Assembly: GCF_041751335.1 (NCBI RefSeq)
Contig: NZ_JBGSXS010000138.1
Location: 6,505-70,504 of the forward strand
Length of the DNA stretch: 64,000 nt
Reading direction: 5' to 3'
Source: Aquiflexum sp.
GTDB taxonomy: Bacteria > Bacteroidota > Bacteroidia > Cytophagales > Cyclobacteriaceae
Part shown: piece by piece, positions 4,028 to 54,123 of the stretch
How the letters are laid out: every line of letters begins with the position of its first letter
Numbering within the stretch: position 1 is the first letter of the stretch
Made by a program: the position numbers and the translations under genes
Notes under the pieces: model-generated
Told to the model about the DNA's origin: nothing
Databases searched by the model: none
The model's input: the letters and a program-made list of their open reading frames with translations, nothing else

Positions 4028-5071
4028 ATGAGAAATCAAATTGAACCTGAAAATTTTGAAGAGGACGAAGAAGTTGAACTATTTGAACACCACAGTTTTG
4101 TGATAGACAAAGGACAAAGTTTGCTGAGGATAGATAAATTCCTTACTGACAAAGTAGCCAATTCAACTCGAAATAGGGTTCAGAATGCCATAGAAGCAGG
4201 CAATGTTCTGGTGAACGGAAAACAGGTAAAACCCAATTATAAAATCAAGCCTTTGGATGAAATCAAAGTGTTTATGGAAAAACCGGTGATGCATTCTGAA
4301 GTACTTGCAGAACCCATTCCGCTAGATATCATTTTTGAGGATGACTACCTTTTGATTATCAATAAACCACCGGGAATGGTTGTCCATCCTGCCCATGGCA
4401 ATTGGACCGGAACACTCGTCAATGGATTGGTATATTATTTCAATCAGCTTCCTACCTTACCGGGAAATAGCGGTAGGCCCGGGCTTGTACATAGGATAGA
4501 TAAAGACACCTCAGGACTTTTGGTAATTGCCAAGTCAGAAATAGCCATGACAGATCTGGCAAATCAGTTTTTTCACCACAACATAGATAGAACTTATCTG
4601 GCTTTGGTGTGGGGAGAACCTAATGAGGATGAAGGCACAATCATTGCCCATGTTGGTAGAAGTCCCAAAAACAGAAAAGTCATGGAGTCCTACCCTGATG
4701 GTTCACAAGGAAAGCATGCCATTACCCATTGGAAAGTCATCAAAAGACTACGCTATGTCACTTTGGTTCAATGTAACTTGGAAACAGGCAGAACCCATCA
4801 AATACGGGCCCACATGAAACATATTGGACATCCCTTATTCAATGATTCCATGTACGGAGGAGACAAAATCAGAAAGGGAACCCAATTTGCCAAGTACAAG
4901 ACTTTTATACAAAACTGTTTTGACCTGATGCCAAGACAAGCACTTCATGCTAAATCCCTTGGCTTTGTTCACCCCATCACGAAGGAAAGAATGTACTTTG
5001 AAACACCCCTACCAACTGATTTTGAGGGGGTCCTTGAAAAATGGGAAAACTATGTCAAATATGAAAATTGA
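4028..5071 (+). CDS. rluD: RluA-family pseudouridine synthase with S4 domain
   Basis: RIDKFL S4 domain, NKPPGMVVHP, HRIDKDTSG, TGRTHQIRAH, QALHA. Confidence 0.93.
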   Translation: MRNQIEPENFEEDEEVELFEHHSFVIDKGQSLLRIDKFLTDKVANSTRNRVQNAIEAGNVLVNGKQVKPNYKIKPLDEIKVFMEKPVMHSEVLAEPIPLDIIFEDDYLLIINKPPGMVVHPAHGNWTGTLVNGLVYYFNQLPTLPGNSGRPGLVHRIDKDTSGLLVIAKSEIAMTDLANQFFHHNIDRTYLALVWGEPNEDEGTIIAHVGRSPKNRKVMESYPDGSQGKHAITHWKVIKRLRYVTLVQCNLETGRTHQIRAHMKHIGHPLFNDSMYGGDKIRKGTQFAKYKTFIQNCFDLMPRQALHAKSLGFVHPITKERMYFETPLPTDFEGVLEKWENYVKYEN

Positions 5072-5260
5072 GGGAATTTGGGATTTTAAAGTTGGATATT
5101 CGATCAAATAAAAACTTAATTACCATTGCTGAGTTTTCAAAACCGAAGGCTTCGAAATCGATTTAAAATAATTACTTTTTAAAAAATTCTTGTTTTTTTA
5201 CAAAAACTGTAAATTTTAGCTAATATTTTTACATAATTATAAAAAGTTAAGTTTTCTTGT

Positions 5261-5268
5261 TAAATTTG
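5261..5268 (+). promoter_or_regulatory. -7 promoter element upstream of tRNA-like element 1
   Basis: TAAATTTG matches TAnnTTTG, 38 nt upstream of the element. Confidence 0.55.
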
Positions 5269-5306
5269 TAATGTTAATAACAGCACTGAAATTAAATTCA
5301 TTGCAG

Positions 5307-5372
5307 TGTAGGATTAATAAAAGGCAAAAGTTTTCATAGAAGACTTTGGAGGTTCGAAACCTTCTCCTACAT
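5307..5372 (+). ncRNA. Minimal tRNA-like RNA, element 1 (acceptor stem plus T arm, no D stem)
   Basis: TGTAGGA 5307-5313 pairs with TCCTACA 5365-5371. T arm GGAGG-TTCGAAA-CCTTC at 5348-5364. 9-bp hairpin AAAGTTTTC-ATA-GAAGACTTT at 5327-5347. Unpaired GG-containing linker. Confidence 0.7.
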
Positions 5373-5403
5373 CCGGTTATTTTGGGTTTATTGTTAATTG
5401 ACT

Positions 5404-5440
5404 AAAGCTGTGAGATTTTGTTTCACAGCTTTTTGTTTTT
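5404..5440 (+). terminator. Rho-independent terminator after element 1
   Basis: AAAGCTGTGAGA-TTTTG-TTTCACAGCTTT followed by a T tract. Confidence 0.8.
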
Positions 5441-5639
5441 AATCCATAATAGCGAACATTAAAGTGGCAAATCATTGAAAGTATAGTTTTATTGAATATC
5501 CTTCATTGATAATACCCTAATTAAATACTCTTTTTCAAGGCGTAATTATTTTATTTACATTTATTATAGCTTATTTTTAAAAATAATATAAAAAATATAT
5601 CTTTTATTTAATTTAATTTTAATAAATAGATCCCTTTGT

Positions 5640-5647
5640 TAATTTTG
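5640..5647 (+). promoter_or_regulatory. -7 promoter element upstream of tRNA-like element 2
   Basis: TAATTTTG in the same TGTTAAWTTTG context as the promoter of element 1. Confidence 0.5.
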
Positions 5648-5751
5648 ACTCATTATTAAGCCAATGGACTTATCATTACTTGATAAAGAATGTTTGTCTA
5701 AAAAGTAAATATCTGCAAAAGTGCAGTGAATTAATTCCATTAAAATCATAA

Positions 5752-5887
5752 TGTAGGATGTTGAAACTGGCAGACAAGCCCTCCTGTCTCGGGGGTGGGG
5801 ATTCCGATTTTTCGGTTCGGATAAAGTGCATCAAGAGCTCTGATGTAGCCTAACTACCCCGTGGAGGTTCGAATCCTTCTCCTACAG
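5752..5887 (+). tRNA. Atypical tRNA or tRNA-like RNA, element 2: anticodon GTC (Asp) with a 67-nt branched variable arm
   Basis: Acceptor TGTAGGA/TCCTACA; D arm TTG-AAACTGGCAGA-CAA; anticodon arm CCCTC-CTGTCTC-GGGGG; variable region 5796-5862; T arm GGAGG-TTCGAAT-CCTTC; discriminator G5887. Confidence 0.8.
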
Positions 5888-5944
5888 CAAAAATGTTTAG
5901 TTCTTTTCAATTATTAGGCAAACTTCTTGTTTTAAGAAACATTT

Positions 5945-5964
5945 AACAGGTTGCCTGTTTTTTT
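5945..5964 (+). terminator. Probable terminator after element 2
   Basis: AACAGG-TTG-CCTGTT followed by a T run. An alternative longer pairing with TAGGCAA at 5915 is possible. Confidence 0.6.
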
Positions 5965-6038
5965 GCATTACAAATTCAAAAACCCTATCGCTATTTTTCC
6001 AAAGCATTTGTATTACTTTTACTTGCGTAGTTTGTAAT

Positions 6039-9000
6039 ATGGAAAACAAAAAGAAAGATAGCGTAGCAAAAAATAGGAGATACAGAAAATACCTTCGAAT
6101 AGGTGGTATTCTAGTTTTCGTATTGGTTTTCCTGCAAACGGTCTTTTATTTCGGTTCAGATTTATTATTGAGAAATTACCTCAAGGAGAGGGTAAATCAA
6201 GCCTCAGATAACAAATATGAGATTGATTTTGACAGATTTTATATCCTTCTTCTTCAGAGAGGTATCTCTTTCAAAGGTCTAAAAATCAATCCTGTTGAAG
6301 ATAAATTCATTGAACTTGTTGATGCACCCTATTACAAAATTTCCATTCCTGACATTTCTTTGACCCGACTGAATTACCTTTTCAGGAAAAAAGAATTTGT
6401 CATAGGCAATATAGATTTGGTTAATCCTGCTGTTGACTTCAGACTGAAAAAAGGGGATTCATTTGAACCTTCCACTGACGAATCGGCCCTCCTTATACTT
6501 CAGGAGGAAATCAAAAAATCCTTTTTGACAACCAGGTTAAAAGAAATCAGGATAAAAAACATCAATATTAAAGAGGCGGATGTTCTACTAAAAAATTTCA
6601 TCGCACAAAAGGCCATCAAGGCAGATCACACAAGCATCTATCTAAAGGACATTCAGTTGCTACAAATGAGATCTCCTGAAACACCTTTTAATGCAGAAGG
6701 CTTTTCTTTTGAGCTTCAGAATTTTGAAATCCTGCTATCGGATAGTGTTCACACCATCCAATCATCCGAAATCAAAGTCTCCTCAATTGATCAGTACATC
6801 GAGGCAAAAAGGGTGAATATTACTCCGGATTTTAGCAAAGCTTCAGCTACCTACTTTCAAGTTGAGCTGGAGGATTTACTCCTAAGTGATGCTGATATCA
6901 ACAAGGTTTTTTACACATCAGAAATAGAAGTCGGTGAACTCAAATTACAAAAACCATCATTCAATTTATTTTCCGGTATAAGACCTGAAAGAAAAGAAAT
7001 CAAACTGGAAACATTTGACCTTTATAATTTGATTGAAGGGATTTTGCAATCCATCAATATCAATCATTTAAAAATTGAGGAAGGGAAATTCACCCAAAGG
7101 GCTACATCCGATCCTGACAATTACAGGATTAAAGCAGAGCGGATAGATTTCAACATGGAGGATTTTTATGTGGGACCTAATGAATCCAAAAAAACCAATC
7201 AGTTCTTTTATGCCAATCAGGCTTCGGTCGAACTATTTCAGGTTGATTTAGCACTGGGAGATAGTCTTCATTGGATTCAGGGGGAATATGTAAGACTTTC
7301 CTCTTTTGATGATGAAATCAAAATTTCCGGATTCAAACTTTTCCCGATAAATGAAAATCAACAGCCTGAGGGTAAAACCCTTTTGGAAATTGAAGTTCCC
7401 GAATTGATGATCAACAATGCCAATCTCAAGAAAACTTATAATCAGGGCATCATTGATATCAATGAAATTGTTATCAACAATCCTAATATTTTGCTCAGGG
7501 ACGTTCAGGGTGGTAAAAATCAGGAAGGAGCTTTTGACTTAAAAAAAATATCGAGGGATTACCTTGAAGGCATCTACGTAAACCGTTTGGTCATTAAGGA
7601 AGGATCGCTCGTAGTGGACAATAACATCAGAATCAGACAGGATAGTCTTTCATTTGGCAAAGTAAGTGTGGTATTGGAAAACTTTGCCCTTGACCAGGAA
7701 ACGGAGGAGTCCGATAGTAAGGGAATATTCTGGGCAGACCACTTACAGCTTGAATTAGAAGACTACGCCCTAAAATTAGCGGATAACCTTCATGTCTTTA
7801 AGGCCGATAGGGTATTTATTGATACAAAAAACGGTCAGATAAGGATCAATGGCTTTGCCCTCCAACCATTCAACAAAAGCCAGATTCAGACATCTGTGGA
7901 CAGATATGGTGTCAGTACAACATTGGACATCTTTGTTCCCCAATTTCAAGCTACAGGAGTGGATGTTAGGAAGGCCTACTTTGATGGCATACTCAAAGTC
8001 CAGCAAATCCGAATCCCGTCTCCCAAGATAAATCTCTATAGATATCGTCCTAAGGTTGGAGACGATTCGGAAAAAATGGACAGTGGGGAAATGCTGAATT
8101 TATTGACCAATTACTTTTCAGAAGTTCAGGTAGATTCCCTTATCATTCAACGTGCAACCTTGAATTATGAAAACTTATTTGGAGACAGGACCAGGACATT
8201 TTCGGAGGATAATGTTTCTGTTGCGGTCAAAAACTTTCATATTTATGAAGGAATCAATCCAGATGCCATCAATTCGCTTTTTTCTGATGAAGTGGACCTT
8301 AGTCTCAACAATTATATATTTAATATAGCAGGTGGCAAATATAATATCCTAGCAGACAGGATCAATTTCAACACTGCAAAAGAAGAAATTATAACTCGAA
8401 ATGTCAGACTTACTCCAAGCGTAGGATTTTCTGATAAAACCAGAATTACAGCAGTAATACCCTCTCTCTCGTTTAGAGGAGTGGATCTTGAAGCATTTTT
8501 ATTTGACAATACATTGAACCTTGAAATGGTCAATCTTACAGGTTCGGCGGTTGAAATATTAGTCAACAATGACTGGAGAGACACCGAAGCACAATCCACT
8601 AGAAGGAGGGCAAGGGACAGAACCCTTCCAAAAAACATTGAAATCGTTATGATTGACACGATTGAAGCCAGCAATGCCCAGTTCAGTCTTTCTTTCAGAG
8701 ACAAGGGAATTCAGCGGGACTTGATCAATACAGGGATAAATTTAAGTGTTTTTGACTTTCTTCTGGATTCCGCAAAAATTGCAAAAGGTGAAATTGCAGG
8801 CTTTTTTGGCGGTATGTCTTTGGGTATTGATGAATTTTGGTTAACCTTAAATGACAGTATTCATCAGGTGACATTTTCCAAAGTAGAACTTGACACAAGG
8901 TATGAAGGAATATTGGTCAATAATTTCAGGATTATTCCCAAAAACCTTTCCGGAAAACCAGGAGTACCTGTTTTTTCAGGACATATTCCTACAGCCCTGA

Positions 9001-10403
9001 TCAAAACAAATTCACTGGCTGAATTGCAGACCAGTAAAGATCTTTGGATAAAAGAACTCAGGCTTTTTAGACCAGACCTCGAATTTTTTATTGACCAAGA
9101 AAAACCTGTAAATGTAAGGAAAGAAGAAAAATCAACTGAAAAAGGAATTCTAGAAAGTTTAAGAATTGATGAATTTGAAATTGTTGAAGGGGACTTTGCT
9201 ATTTTTGATAAAAACTCATCAAAAGCACCTCAAGAATTTAAATCAATCAATTTTGGACTTGAGAAGTTACAATTTGACCTTATAGATCTCAGTAGATTGA
9301 ACAGAAAAGAATTACTCAAAAAAGATTTTCAACTGACTCTCCCAAACTATGAAATCCTCCTTAAAGACAGTTTGAACAAAGTAAAAATCGGTCTGATTTC
9401 ATTAACTAATAATGAAATAAAACTCACCAATGTTGAATTTATACCCAGGTATGGTAGGTATCAGTATAGCAGGATGGTAGGAATGCAGACTGATGTAGCC
9501 AATATCCACATTCCAGTCATCATAATAGATGGAGCTGACCTTGATGGTTTTTTGGAAAATGAAACCATTGTTGCCAAATCAATCAGAATTAGCGATATCA
9601 AGGCTGATCTTTTCAGAGATAAAAGATTCCCTAAAAAGCAGGATGTTTTCAAGGCTATGCCGCAGGAATTAATGAAAAAGGCAGGAGTTCAGTTATCCCT
9701 AGATTCATTATTTATTGAAAATGCCACCATAAATTATCTTGAATTTCCTGAGAATGGTATGGTCCCAGGAAATATTTCTTTCAGCAATATGAATGTGGCT
9801 TTTTACCCATTCCATCTGACCAAAGAAAATGAACCATTTCCTGTTGAAGAAATTTTTCTTTTGGCCAATGCCAAACTCAATGGTCAGGCTGATCTGAATC
9901 TTCAGGGACAATTGTTTTTTGAAAAACCTTTTCCAATGAAAATCAGTGCTCAAATGGGTGAGTTTGATCTGGAATATTTGAATTCAATTCTTCAATCCAA
10001 TGCATTTTTGCGTGTCACGGAGGGAAAAATCAATGGTGCTGATTGGTCATTTACGGCGGATGAGAAAGAAGCCGTGGGTAGAATGATTTTGTTGTATTCG
10101 GATTTAAAACTGGAATTATTGGATGAAAGGACTCTCGAAAGAGGTACCGGTAGAACAGCCATACTCACTTTCGTTCTCAATACCTTTGCTGTCCGAAGCA
10201 ATAACCCAAGAAGATATCTCAGAAAACCCATCAGCTCCAACATATATGAACTTCGAGATACCGAACGGTTCATTTTTAATTACTTGTGGAGCACAACCCT
10301 TAGTGGGCTAAAAGGTAGCCTTGGACTAGGTCAACCAAAGGTTCCTAAAAGAAGGAAAATGGAAGCTGAAGAGGTGAGAAGGCGGAAAAAAGAGAAAAAA
10401 TAG
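6039..10403 (+). CDS. Large membrane-anchored, beta-rich repeat protein (AsmA/DUF748-like)
   Basis: 1454-aa ORF with one N-terminal TM segment, alternating hydrophobic strands and about six internal repeats. Confidence 0.65.
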   Translation: MENKKKDSVAKNRRYRKYLRIGGILVFVLVFLQTVFYFGSDLLLRNYLKERVNQASDNKYEIDFDRFYILLLQRGISFKGLKINPVEDKFIELVDAPYYKISIPDISLTRLNYLFRKKEFVIGNIDLVNPAVDFRLKKGDSFEPSTDESALLILQEEIKKSFLTTRLKEIRIKNINIKEADVLLKNFIAQKAIKADHTSIYLKDIQLLQMRSPETPFNAEGFSFELQNFEILLSDSVHTIQSSEIKVSSIDQYIEAKRVNITPDFSKASATYFQVELEDLLLSDADINKVFYTSEIEVGELKLQKPSFNLFSGIRPERKEIKLETFDLYNLIEGILQSININHLKIEEGKFTQRATSDPDNYRIKAERIDFNMEDFYVGPNESKKTNQFFYANQASVELFQVDLALGDSLHWIQGEYVRLSSFDDEIKISGFKLFPINENQQPEGKTLLEIEVPELMINNANLKKTYNQGIIDINEIVINNPNILLRDVQGGKNQEGAFDLKKISRDYLEGIYVNRLVIKEGSLVVDNNIRIRQDSLSFGKVSVVLENFALDQETEESDSKGIFWADHLQLELEDYALKLADNLHVFKADRVFIDTKNGQIRINGFALQPFNKSQIQTSVDRYGVSTTLDIFVPQFQATGVDVRKAYFDGILKVQQIRIPSPKINLYRYRPKVGDDSEKMDSGEMLNLLTNYFSEVQVDSLIIQRATLNYENLFGDRTRTFSEDNVSVAVKNFHIYEGINPDAINSLFSDEVDLSLNNYIFNIAGGKYNILADRINFNTAKEEIITRNVRLTPSVGFSDKTRITAVIPSLSFRGVDLEAFLFDNTLNLEMVNLTGSAVEILVNNDWRDTEAQSTRRRARDRTLPKNIEIVMIDTIEASNAQFSLSFRDKGIQRDLINTGINLSVFDFLLDSAKIAKGEIAGFFGGMSLGIDEFWLTLNDSIHQVTFSKVELDTRYEGILVNNFRIIPKNLSGKPGVPVFSGHIPTALIKTNSLAELQTSKDLWIKELRLFRPDLEFFIDQEKPVNVRKEEKSTEKGILESLRIDEFEIVEGDFAIFDKNSSKAPQEFKSINFGLEKLQFDLIDLSRLNRKELLKKDFQLTLPNYEILLKDSLNKVKIGLISLTNNEIKLTNVEFIPRYGRYQYSRMVGMQTDVANIHIPVIIIDGADLDGFLENETIVAKSIRISDIKADLFRDKRFPKKQDVFKAMPQELMKKAGVQLSLDSLFIENATINYLEFPENGMVPGNISFSNMNVAFYPFHLTKENEPFPVEEIFLLANAKLNGQADLNLQGQLFFEKPFPMKISAQMGEFDLEYLNSILQSNAFLRVTEGKINGADWSFTADEKEAVGRMILLYSDLKLELLDERTLERGTGRTAILTFVLNTFAVRSNNPRRYLRKPISSNIYELRDTERFIFNYLWSTTLSGLKGSLGLGQPKVPKRRKMEAEEVRRRKKEKK

Positions 10404-54080: not shown

Positions 54081-54123
54081 GGTCGGAATCCCGATAGCTA
54101 TCGGGACGAAGTCGGAAGTCCGA
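54081..54123. repeat. 18-bp perfect palindrome inside short GTCGGAA repeats
   Basis: TCCCGATAGCTATCGGGA at 54089-54106, flanked by GTCGGAA and GAAGTCGGAAGTCCGA. Confidence 0.75.

Follow-up and report, generated by a model that had tools for sequence, protein, structure and literature searches.

A published survey counted 46 genera whose genomes have AsnRS and GatCAB and lack an asparagine synthetase, and it named Bacteroidetes among the genera in which AsnRS, GlnRS and GatCAB occur without such a synthetase (PMC4206432). Several of the marks that steer tRNAs in the indirect pathway have been described: the U1-A72 pair confers amidation by GatCAB, which G1-C72 and U20a prevent, the anticodon bases are the strongest bacterial determinants for aspartate, and G1-C72 helps E. 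coli AspRS (PMC9976931). In the T stem, G49-C65 and A51-U63 are reported to bar Asp-tRNA(Asn) from EF-Tu, the ester being left unprotected from hydrolysis (PMC1904265). tRNA-Asp is given among the tightest binders of EF-Tu and A51-U63 as weak, and tRNAs that stand out by weak EF-Tu binding have been proposed as candidates for roles outside translation (PMC3239215).

The window, by which we mean the whole stretch of 64,000 nucleotides of Aquiflexum sp. DNA analysed here, contains a tRNA-like RNA gene of 136 nt (5752-5887, on the forward strand like all features given below) that, by virtue of its U1-A72 pair, weak T stem and GUC loop, joins an aspartate anticodon loop to the top half of an indirect-pathway tRNA. 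With the tRNA-Asn of that pathway it shares U1-A72, G73, G49-C65 and A51-U63, an apparent dependence on GatCAB and an apparent part in filling the gap left by missing AsnA and AsnB (PMC1904265, PMC4206432, PMC9976931). It differs in having GUC and not GUU, U37, a variable position 33 and, across the family, a variable domain of 38-142 nt; it is likely no decoder, exists beside a normal tRNA-Asn and is paired with asnC. The RNA thus seems to work like a tRNA-Asn without being one, its anticodon and arm placing it outside that class. Canonical tRNA-Asp(GUC) (RF00005) has G34, U35, C36, C38, G73 and G2-C71 in common with it, but the RNA carries U1-A72 in place of G1-C72, a weak T stem in place of a tight one, a 3-bp D stem with A15/U48 and a giant arm, and is left unscored by RF00005 and ARAGORN; the short variable loop of the canonical molecule is replaced here by a 67-nt arm, and U33 and a purine at 37 are found in 74 and 5 of 88 copies respectively. 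The class II tRNAs for leucine and serine offer the likeness of a D arm with A15-U48, G18G19 and an extra D-loop base, and of a helical variable arm that stops one base short of position 48. Unlike them, the RNA has a constrained anticodon of the acidic amino acids and an arm three to ten times longer with a conserved internal loop of its own, and it has G73 and U35 in 88/88 copies where tRNA-Leu has A73 and A35.

Two sets of unorthodox tRNAs also invite comparison. The staphylococcal non-proteinogenic tRNA-Gly is likewise an additional isoacceptor whose T stem is predicted to escape EF-Tu and which has a normal copy alongside, but it is of normal size and donates to peptidoglycan ligases, with no amidotransferase link in the account given (PMC3239215). 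The allo-tRNAs and selC* tRNAs are rare tRNA-like genes whose arms are long and which in some cases carry GUC, but have 8/4 or 9/3 stems and diverse anticodons, in contrast to the 7/5 stems and fixed anticodon loop of the RNA (PMC5389517, PMC7609411); the string 'Bacteroid' is absent from the main texts of both reports. The acceptor stem of 7 bp and T stem of 5 bp also set the RNA apart from the 8/5 form of this allo-tRNA/Sec group. Our literature search, in which subscription papers were mostly out of reach, found no description of the RNA. In E. coli, asnC and asnA form a divergent gene pair; an asnC-type regulator likewise lies near the RNA gene in 63 of 80 loci, back to back with it in those inspected, with the differences that the partner is an RNA and not an enzyme and that the pair is broken up in the window genome.

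We read the RNA, at a probability of about one half, as a non-decoding tRNA-like molecule that is likely to be a substrate of AspRS and GatCAB and to supply asparagine in place of an asparagine synthetase. This reading derives from its occurrence only in company with GatB, its loss or decay in the presence of AsnA or AsnB, its pairing with asnC in most lineages and its invariant marks. The family is a concrete and testable candidate for the source of free asparagine in bacteria without a synthetase, and if the supply reading is true it would be a case of a tRNA turned into a metabolic cofactor and placed under the regulator of a biosynthetic pathway. Even if the supply reading is false, it constitutes a widespread, uncatalogued and abundant-looking RNA missed by standard tRNA finders, and a natural test of the arm size tolerated by AspRS, GatCAB, EF-Tu and the ribosome.

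The RNA gene, its transcripts and its arm

The gene lies alone between a gene for an RluA/RluD-family pseudouridine synthase (4028-5071) and an ORF of 1454 amino acids (6039-10403) that has no NCBIfam match. In the window's clade the RNA mostly follows rluD, and the 1454-aa ORF is conserved downstream of it. Running from U1 to G73, the gene obtains a covariance-model score of 124 bits. Its cloverleaf, as set out in a first-pass annotation made from the sequence, is present base for base: an acceptor stem (5752-5758 with U1 and G2, paired to 5880-5886, and G73 at 5887), a D arm (5761-5777) with a 3-bp stem, A15 and G18G19, an anticodon arm (5779-5795) with GTC at 5786-5788, U37 at 5789 and C38 at 5790, a variable domain of 67 nt (5796-5862), and a T arm (5863-5879) with G49-C65, G50.U64 and A51-U63, which is of the tRNA-Asn type and weak for EF-Tu (PMC1904265). 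The variable region is closed, as described there, by GGGG (5797-5800) against CCCC (5857-5860) and holds hairpins at 5804-5815 and 5827-5847; CCA is indeed unencoded, G73 being followed by CAA.

Folding energy gives no support for this structure (z = -0.32, with 66 of 200 shuffles equally good), and we take the cloverleaf as real, and not the product of chance, on the grounds of covariation and slid controls. In an alignment of 25 diverse homologues 98.7% of cells are paired, and pairing falls to 53-68% when the same alignment is slid. Pairs that change on both sides number 11 of 25, a figure reached in 0 of 500 shuffles; related sequences can beat a shuffle control of this kind, and weight is placed on the slid control and on per-pair swaps, which are seen in every stem, those of the D arm and the closing stem of the variable domain included, except the anticodon stem. 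ARAGORN found nothing in the window, and noise only when introns were allowed and the threshold lowered. Rfam gave no match at the gathering score and, at E up to 10 on 5072-6040, nothing tRNA-like over the RNA gene. The locus is a real and conserved RNA gene, tRNA-shaped with a huge folded side arm, and it belongs to a family that is uncatalogued in Rfam and missed by ARAGORN.

No sequencing run holds the window organism's own stretch (shares 0.05-0.09). Across the 271 bases compared, coverage by metatranscriptome contigs of relatives is confined to 5748-5889, and one RNA contig of 139 bases, from a relative, spans 5752-5887 end to end; contigs of this sort show presence and not level, strand or ends, and uncovered flanks are uninformative. 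They bear on a suggestion of the first-pass annotation that the arm is an excised insert, the RNA being a precursor whose splicing would yield a short tRNA-Asp. An arm-less version of 76 nt in one genome (G300, below) would suit a precursor, as would five joints of low depth (27-655) that skip 48-59 bases of the arm. The sides of these joints are only 20-24 bases long, their ends are scattered and undetermined letters lie in the gap, a picture expected of other members of the family, to which, and not to splicing, we attribute them; contigs of three studies, by contrast, cross the arm unspliced at depths up to about 6000, no single precise joint was seen, and there is no Rfam intron match. Splicing is, in our estimation, extremely improbable.

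The arm is built in three layers: first the closing stem, which covaries, next an internal loop that is conserved, and last a distal part that is free. The internal loop, which the first-pass annotation left unmarked, is the most conserved part of the arm; its 5' strand GGATAAAG (5819-5826) faces CCTAAC (5849-5854), its closing pair 5819/5854 holds in 208 of 216 copies (GC 193, AT 11, CG 2, GT 1, TA 1), and its inner pair in 207 of 216, with swaps between CG, GC and TA. We presume that it may be a motif of the UAA/GAN type. Hairpin 1 (5804-5815) is optional, being missing in 18 of 32 copies of the window's clade, and resembles a dispersed palindromic repeat of the window genome, where a 14-nt repeat like it has 30 exact copies; the full palindromic repeat occupies its place at two loci (L004 and L039). 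An earlier proviso, that the arm might be a recent insertion, holds for hairpin 1 only and fails for the remaining arm. The palindromic repeat is also found as an exact copy at window position 54091, and inserted in the D/anticodon region of two tandem copies elsewhere (L021, 1675-1986).

The loop of hairpin 2 (5827-5847) includes the palindrome GAGCTC at 5835-5840, which may serve as the tip of a kissing loop. GAGCTC occurs in 31 of the 32 clade copies, compared with 11.4 having any GC-rich palindrome in shuffles, and GC-rich loop palindromes of nine kinds occur in 39 of 60 phage copies against 10.4. No such excess is present in 188 other cellular copies (37 against 52 in shuffles), 118 of which have a GGTNGACC motif instead. 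Hence a kissing-loop dimer is plausible for the window's clade and the phages, and not for the family as a whole.

Upstream, the octamer TAATTTTG (5640-5647) is a candidate -7 box that recurs in front of several homologues, the call depending on what we take to be the promoter consensus of Bacteroidota; downstream is a terminator-like hairpin with a T run (5945-5967). A reduced paralogue of 66 nt (5307-5372) precedes the gene, with the same acceptor stem and T arm, T at 73 and a short GG loop, one short hairpin of free sequence replacing the anticodon arm and variable domain. It too is covered by RNA contigs. Such a copy is found at the same place in 5 of 18 loci scanned (L001, L002, L003, L005 and L006) and a full-length copy at its place in L007, L011, L019 and L023; the reduced form may be a stage of decay or a processing signal for the trailer that follows it. 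This conserved 31-nt trailer (5375-5405; 5375-5440 with its terminator) is identical letter for letter across the clade's genera where it lies between RNA and terminator, is covered by RNA contigs, follows the last copy on contig C351 of the window genome also, and is possibly a small RNA. Pairing of the trailer with the 5' leader of asnC was considered and rejected: among the leaders listed only that of the window genome has a complementary stretch, and of 130 distant copies only 12 have the trailer motif after them.

Conserved marks and the proposed fate of the charged RNA

Marks were counted over 88 distinct copies, which BLAST or a covariance model had picked out by their likeness to the window copy, with a script that demanded six of seven acceptor pairs; counts of the anticodon and T stem on loci found by a fixed pattern were circular and have been replaced by these. 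Invariant in 88/88 are U1-A72, G2-C71, G73, C38, U35, C36 and A15/U48. The anticodon is GTC in 83, TTC in 2, ATC in 2 and CTC in 1, with GTT in none; position 33 is T in 74, G in 12 and C in 2, and position 37 is T in 82, G in 5 and C in 1, so that both GTC and U37, whose conservation had been proposed as a check, are conserved. G49-C65 and A51-U63 are each present in 87 of 88 copies, A51-U63 being less fixed in phages (27 of 60 phage copies). Total length ranges from 106 to 212 nt, and an encoded CCA follows 30 of 226 cellular copies.

The window genome has two ordinary tRNA-Asp genes, the separate canonical genes whose presence it had been suggested should be verified, and their product has G1-C72, G49.U65 and G51-C63, unlike the U1-A72, G49-C65 and A51-U63 of the RNA. 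The genome's tRNA-Asn itself carries U1-A72. The D-loop of the RNA is close to that of the genome's tRNA-Leu, eight loop bases being identical to its tRNA-Gln, and contains one extra base after G19; tRNA-Asn of this genome has U20a too. The first-pass annotation had recorded U1-A72, although it missed its meaning as a GatCAB determinant; of its three suggestions, that of an AspRS substrate with a non-ribosomal role would fit the U35, C36, C38, G73 and G2-C71 found throughout, alongside the two ordinary genes. Glu-type anticodons with U1-A72 kept were seen in both copies of one genome (TTC; G097, L208) and in a copy of another (CTC; G080, L026), and these could be substrates of GluRS and GatCAB.

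That the RNA decodes, whether as an odd tRNA-Asp or as a tRNA charged with serine or asparagine that reads Asp codons in deliberate mistranslation, we consider very unlikely. The complete cloverleaf with GUC speaks for it, allo-tRNAs with GUC are reported to exist, and a long arm with G73 provides elements for SerRS; in some contexts a change of A73 to G73 is reported to turn leucine identity into serine identity. Against this stand position 33, occupied by G or C in 14 of 88 copies, U37 in 82 of 88, lengths up to 212 nt, the ordinary tRNA-Asp genes, and G33 in both copies on contig C351; the mischarged Asp-codon reader of the first-pass annotation is likewise disfavoured by positions 33 and 37.

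The weak T stem has been described as a mark of tRNAs that donate their amino acid outside the ribosome (PMC3239215), and the RNA could give aspartate or asparagine to a non-ribosomal transferase acting on envelope, lipid or protein, like the staphylococcal tRNA-Gly, with the conserved arm motif as the transferase site. No transferase gene, however, recurs nearby, asnC being the only recurring neighbour, and the swap with AsnA or AsnB would be left unexplained; such a donor is decidedly improbable.

For the supply reading, we put forward a specific form as a tentative proposal, somewhat more apt to fail in one of its parts than to hold in all of them, in which the RNA is the reusable core of an asparagine synthetase: AspRS would load it with aspartate, which GatCAB would amidate and which would leave it as free asparagine, while the arm blocks the ribosome, helps release and, in the window's clade and the phages, pairs molecules through its palindromic loop, the whole being regulated by AsnC and swapped for asnA or asnB. 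The RNA would be processed at both ends and given CCA in the manner of a tRNA, and be aspartylated by AspRS through G34/U35/C36, C38 and G73. EF-Tu would reject it by means of G49-C65 with A51-U63, the ribosome by means of the arm, U37 and the G33 variants, and U1-A72 would permit GatCAB to amidate Asp to Asn. Deacylation, spontaneous or enzymatic, would then free asparagine for AsnRS or other consumers, and AsnC would presumably induce the RNA when asparagine is short, as in the asnC-asnA system of E. coli. The arm is the weakest step in this scheme; it probably acts as a steric block with a protein-binding internal loop, and its palindromic tip may pair two molecules. Against the supply reading stand the three copies with Glu-type anticodons, the less fixed A51-U63 of the phage copies and the reported help of G1-C72 to E. 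coli AspRS; the extra D-loop base may also tell against it, a base at 20a being a reported GatCAB antideterminant.

Distribution with respect to asparagine synthetases, GatB and asnC

BLAST matches occur in 127 of 151 genomes of the window's family, often as several copies and in tandem, these counts being approximate since BLAST misses some copies (as in G094) and the set including one unpublished genome (G111). The window genome has three full copies, one in the window and two on C351. A pattern scan of the species collection returned 122 stretches from 5 of 64 parts, which scales to about 1800 in all, and the titles among the 80 matches listed were all of Bacteroidota (Chitinophagales, Cytophagales, Sphingobacteriales and Saprospiraceae). 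The 5' half of the RNA is present in about 170 viral stretches, from which 60 distinct full copies were extracted. On a further contig of the window genome, ARAGORN called four tandem tRNA-Cys(GCA) genes (G000 C240 10106-10824).

An asnC-like gene lies within 600 bases of the RNA in the 63 of 80 loci mentioned above and is divergent in the loci inspected. None of the window genome's three copies adjoins asnC; the asnC homologue of that genome lies on a separate contig, where a trailer-like stretch and a terminator are all that is left beside it, and has as closest solved structure E. coli AsnC (2cg4, E 2.4e-34), while scoring 164 bits against an NCBIfam cut-off of 227. The genome encodes GatA, GatB, AsnRS and one AspRS; at 89.9% completeness, neither AsnA nor a housekeeping-type AsnB was found in it. 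It has a single AsnB-like gene, whose neighbours appear to be polysaccharide-related; this gene passes TIGR01536, although with a score of 200 against 499 for the housekeeping family. GlnRS was not found either, which gives GatCAB an ordinary job in glutamine supply there; an idea that GatCAB would otherwise be jobless in this genome fails on the same ground.

Two samples of 149 genomes each, partly overlapping, were compared, one of the window's class (including unpublished G463) and one of the phylum, the genomes being kin and hence non-independent. In the class sample the RNA is present in 27 of 149 genomes, with GatB in 27 of 27 carriers and the RNA in 0 of 36 genomes without GatB. AsnA or a housekeeping AsnB is found in 21 class genomes, of which 0 have the long RNA. 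The phylum sample contains 38 genomes of the window's class, of which 15 have the RNA (two at weaker scores) and all 15 have GatB, one has GatB only and 22 have neither; outside that class GatB occurs in 108 of 111 genomes and the RNA in one. Within one genus (g286), a genome has AsnB only (G429) and two have RNA and GatB (G460 and G485). In family f3 two genomes (G182 and G230) are without RNA and GatB and seven others have both, two of them at weaker RNA scores; contrasts among kin are also found in family f5 (G166 and G368 against G322 and G507) and family f8 (G277 against three).

BLAST found no match in 9 of the 14 genomes of the window's family that have AsnB, compared with 15 of the 137 others. 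The RNA-less AsnB genomes tested, five of five, are also without GatB and gave no long model match, and three of four genomes without RNA and AsnB have AsnA. A complete, single-contig genome with AsnB (G133) retains a decayed copy of 95 nt beside asnC (L376, G133:C1:725352-725446) in which the anticodon loop, G73 and the CTAA motif are lost. Loss of the RNA tracks gain of AsnA or AsnB in the window's family, and such swaps recur across families and once within a genus. A match of the model over 182 nt in another genome (G159) is an artefact of tandem tRNA-Leu genes.

Several observations count against the supply reading. AsnRS is found in 24 of 27 carriers, and in the three that lack it (G433, G473 and G496), where asnC is still next to the RNA, no direct route leads from free asparagine to protein. 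Class genomes with GatB but with neither RNA nor AsnA or housekeeping AsnB number 81 of 149, which means that asparagine supply through GatCAB does not as a rule require the RNA; a pattern search of these 81 found no hidden short relatives, the matches in RNA-less genomes other than G300 being at chance level. Four AsnB genomes keep an intact copy (G014, G022, G064 and G093), and G300, which has AsnA and GatB, has the arm-less version of 76 nt with U1-A72, G73, ATC and U37 (L247, G300:C23:55338-55413). GatCAB is in any case needed for glutamine, and the window genome's copies stand apart from asnC. In G093 a copy and a housekeeping asnB stand back to back, about 1.1 kb apart (L377, G093:C87).

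Taken together, these results are compatible with release of free asparagine, with a scaffold for the enzymes or with their restraint. As a scaffold or booster, the RNA, perhaps as a kissing-loop dimer, would hold AspRS and GatCAB together and speed formation of Asn-tRNA(Asn) on the ordinary tRNA-Asn, with no turnover of asparagine itself. Such a role would explain the GatB, AsnA/AsnB and asnC patterns as well as supply does, and in addition the three AsnRS-less carriers with asnC still beside the RNA; it would agree with the palindromic tips of the window's clade and the phages, and the transamidosome is reported to have 5 to 14 components (PMC9976931). The lack of palindrome excess in the 188 other cellular copies speaks against it, however, and the invariant EF-Tu antideterminants would matter mainly if the RNA carries aspartate, and on balance we think a scaffold unlikely. 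Restraint would be the work of a decoy or sensor under AsnC control, which would bind AspRS or GatCAB and turn the indirect route down in times of ample asparagine. The same marks and distribution would be expected of it, as would the G33 variants and multiple paralogues, and RNA mimics that bind synthetases through anticodon loops are reported to exist (PMC9976931). Titration of GatCAB would, however, be costly in the window genome, which depends on it for glutamine as well, the decay of the RNA that followed gain of AsnB fits supply better, and carriage by many phages would be easier to read as supply; we hold a decoy to be distinctly unlikely.

Returning to the supply reading, we also considered whether carriers possess a discriminating AspRS that needs a surrogate with GUC. 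The AspRS N-termini are alike in carriers and non-carriers, in a comparison (71 of 91 sequences aligned) that includes the AsnRS-less genomes, whose enzyme must accept tRNA-Asn; this, together with the U1-A72 of the window genome's tRNA-Asn, leaves the idea unsupported. The diagnostic positions used in that comparison are those we take to be diagnostic, a literature search for them having given nothing. Four genomes of family f74 (G424, G456, G481 and G504) have a second AspRS fused to a GatB-like part in one frame of 1110-1120 amino acids.
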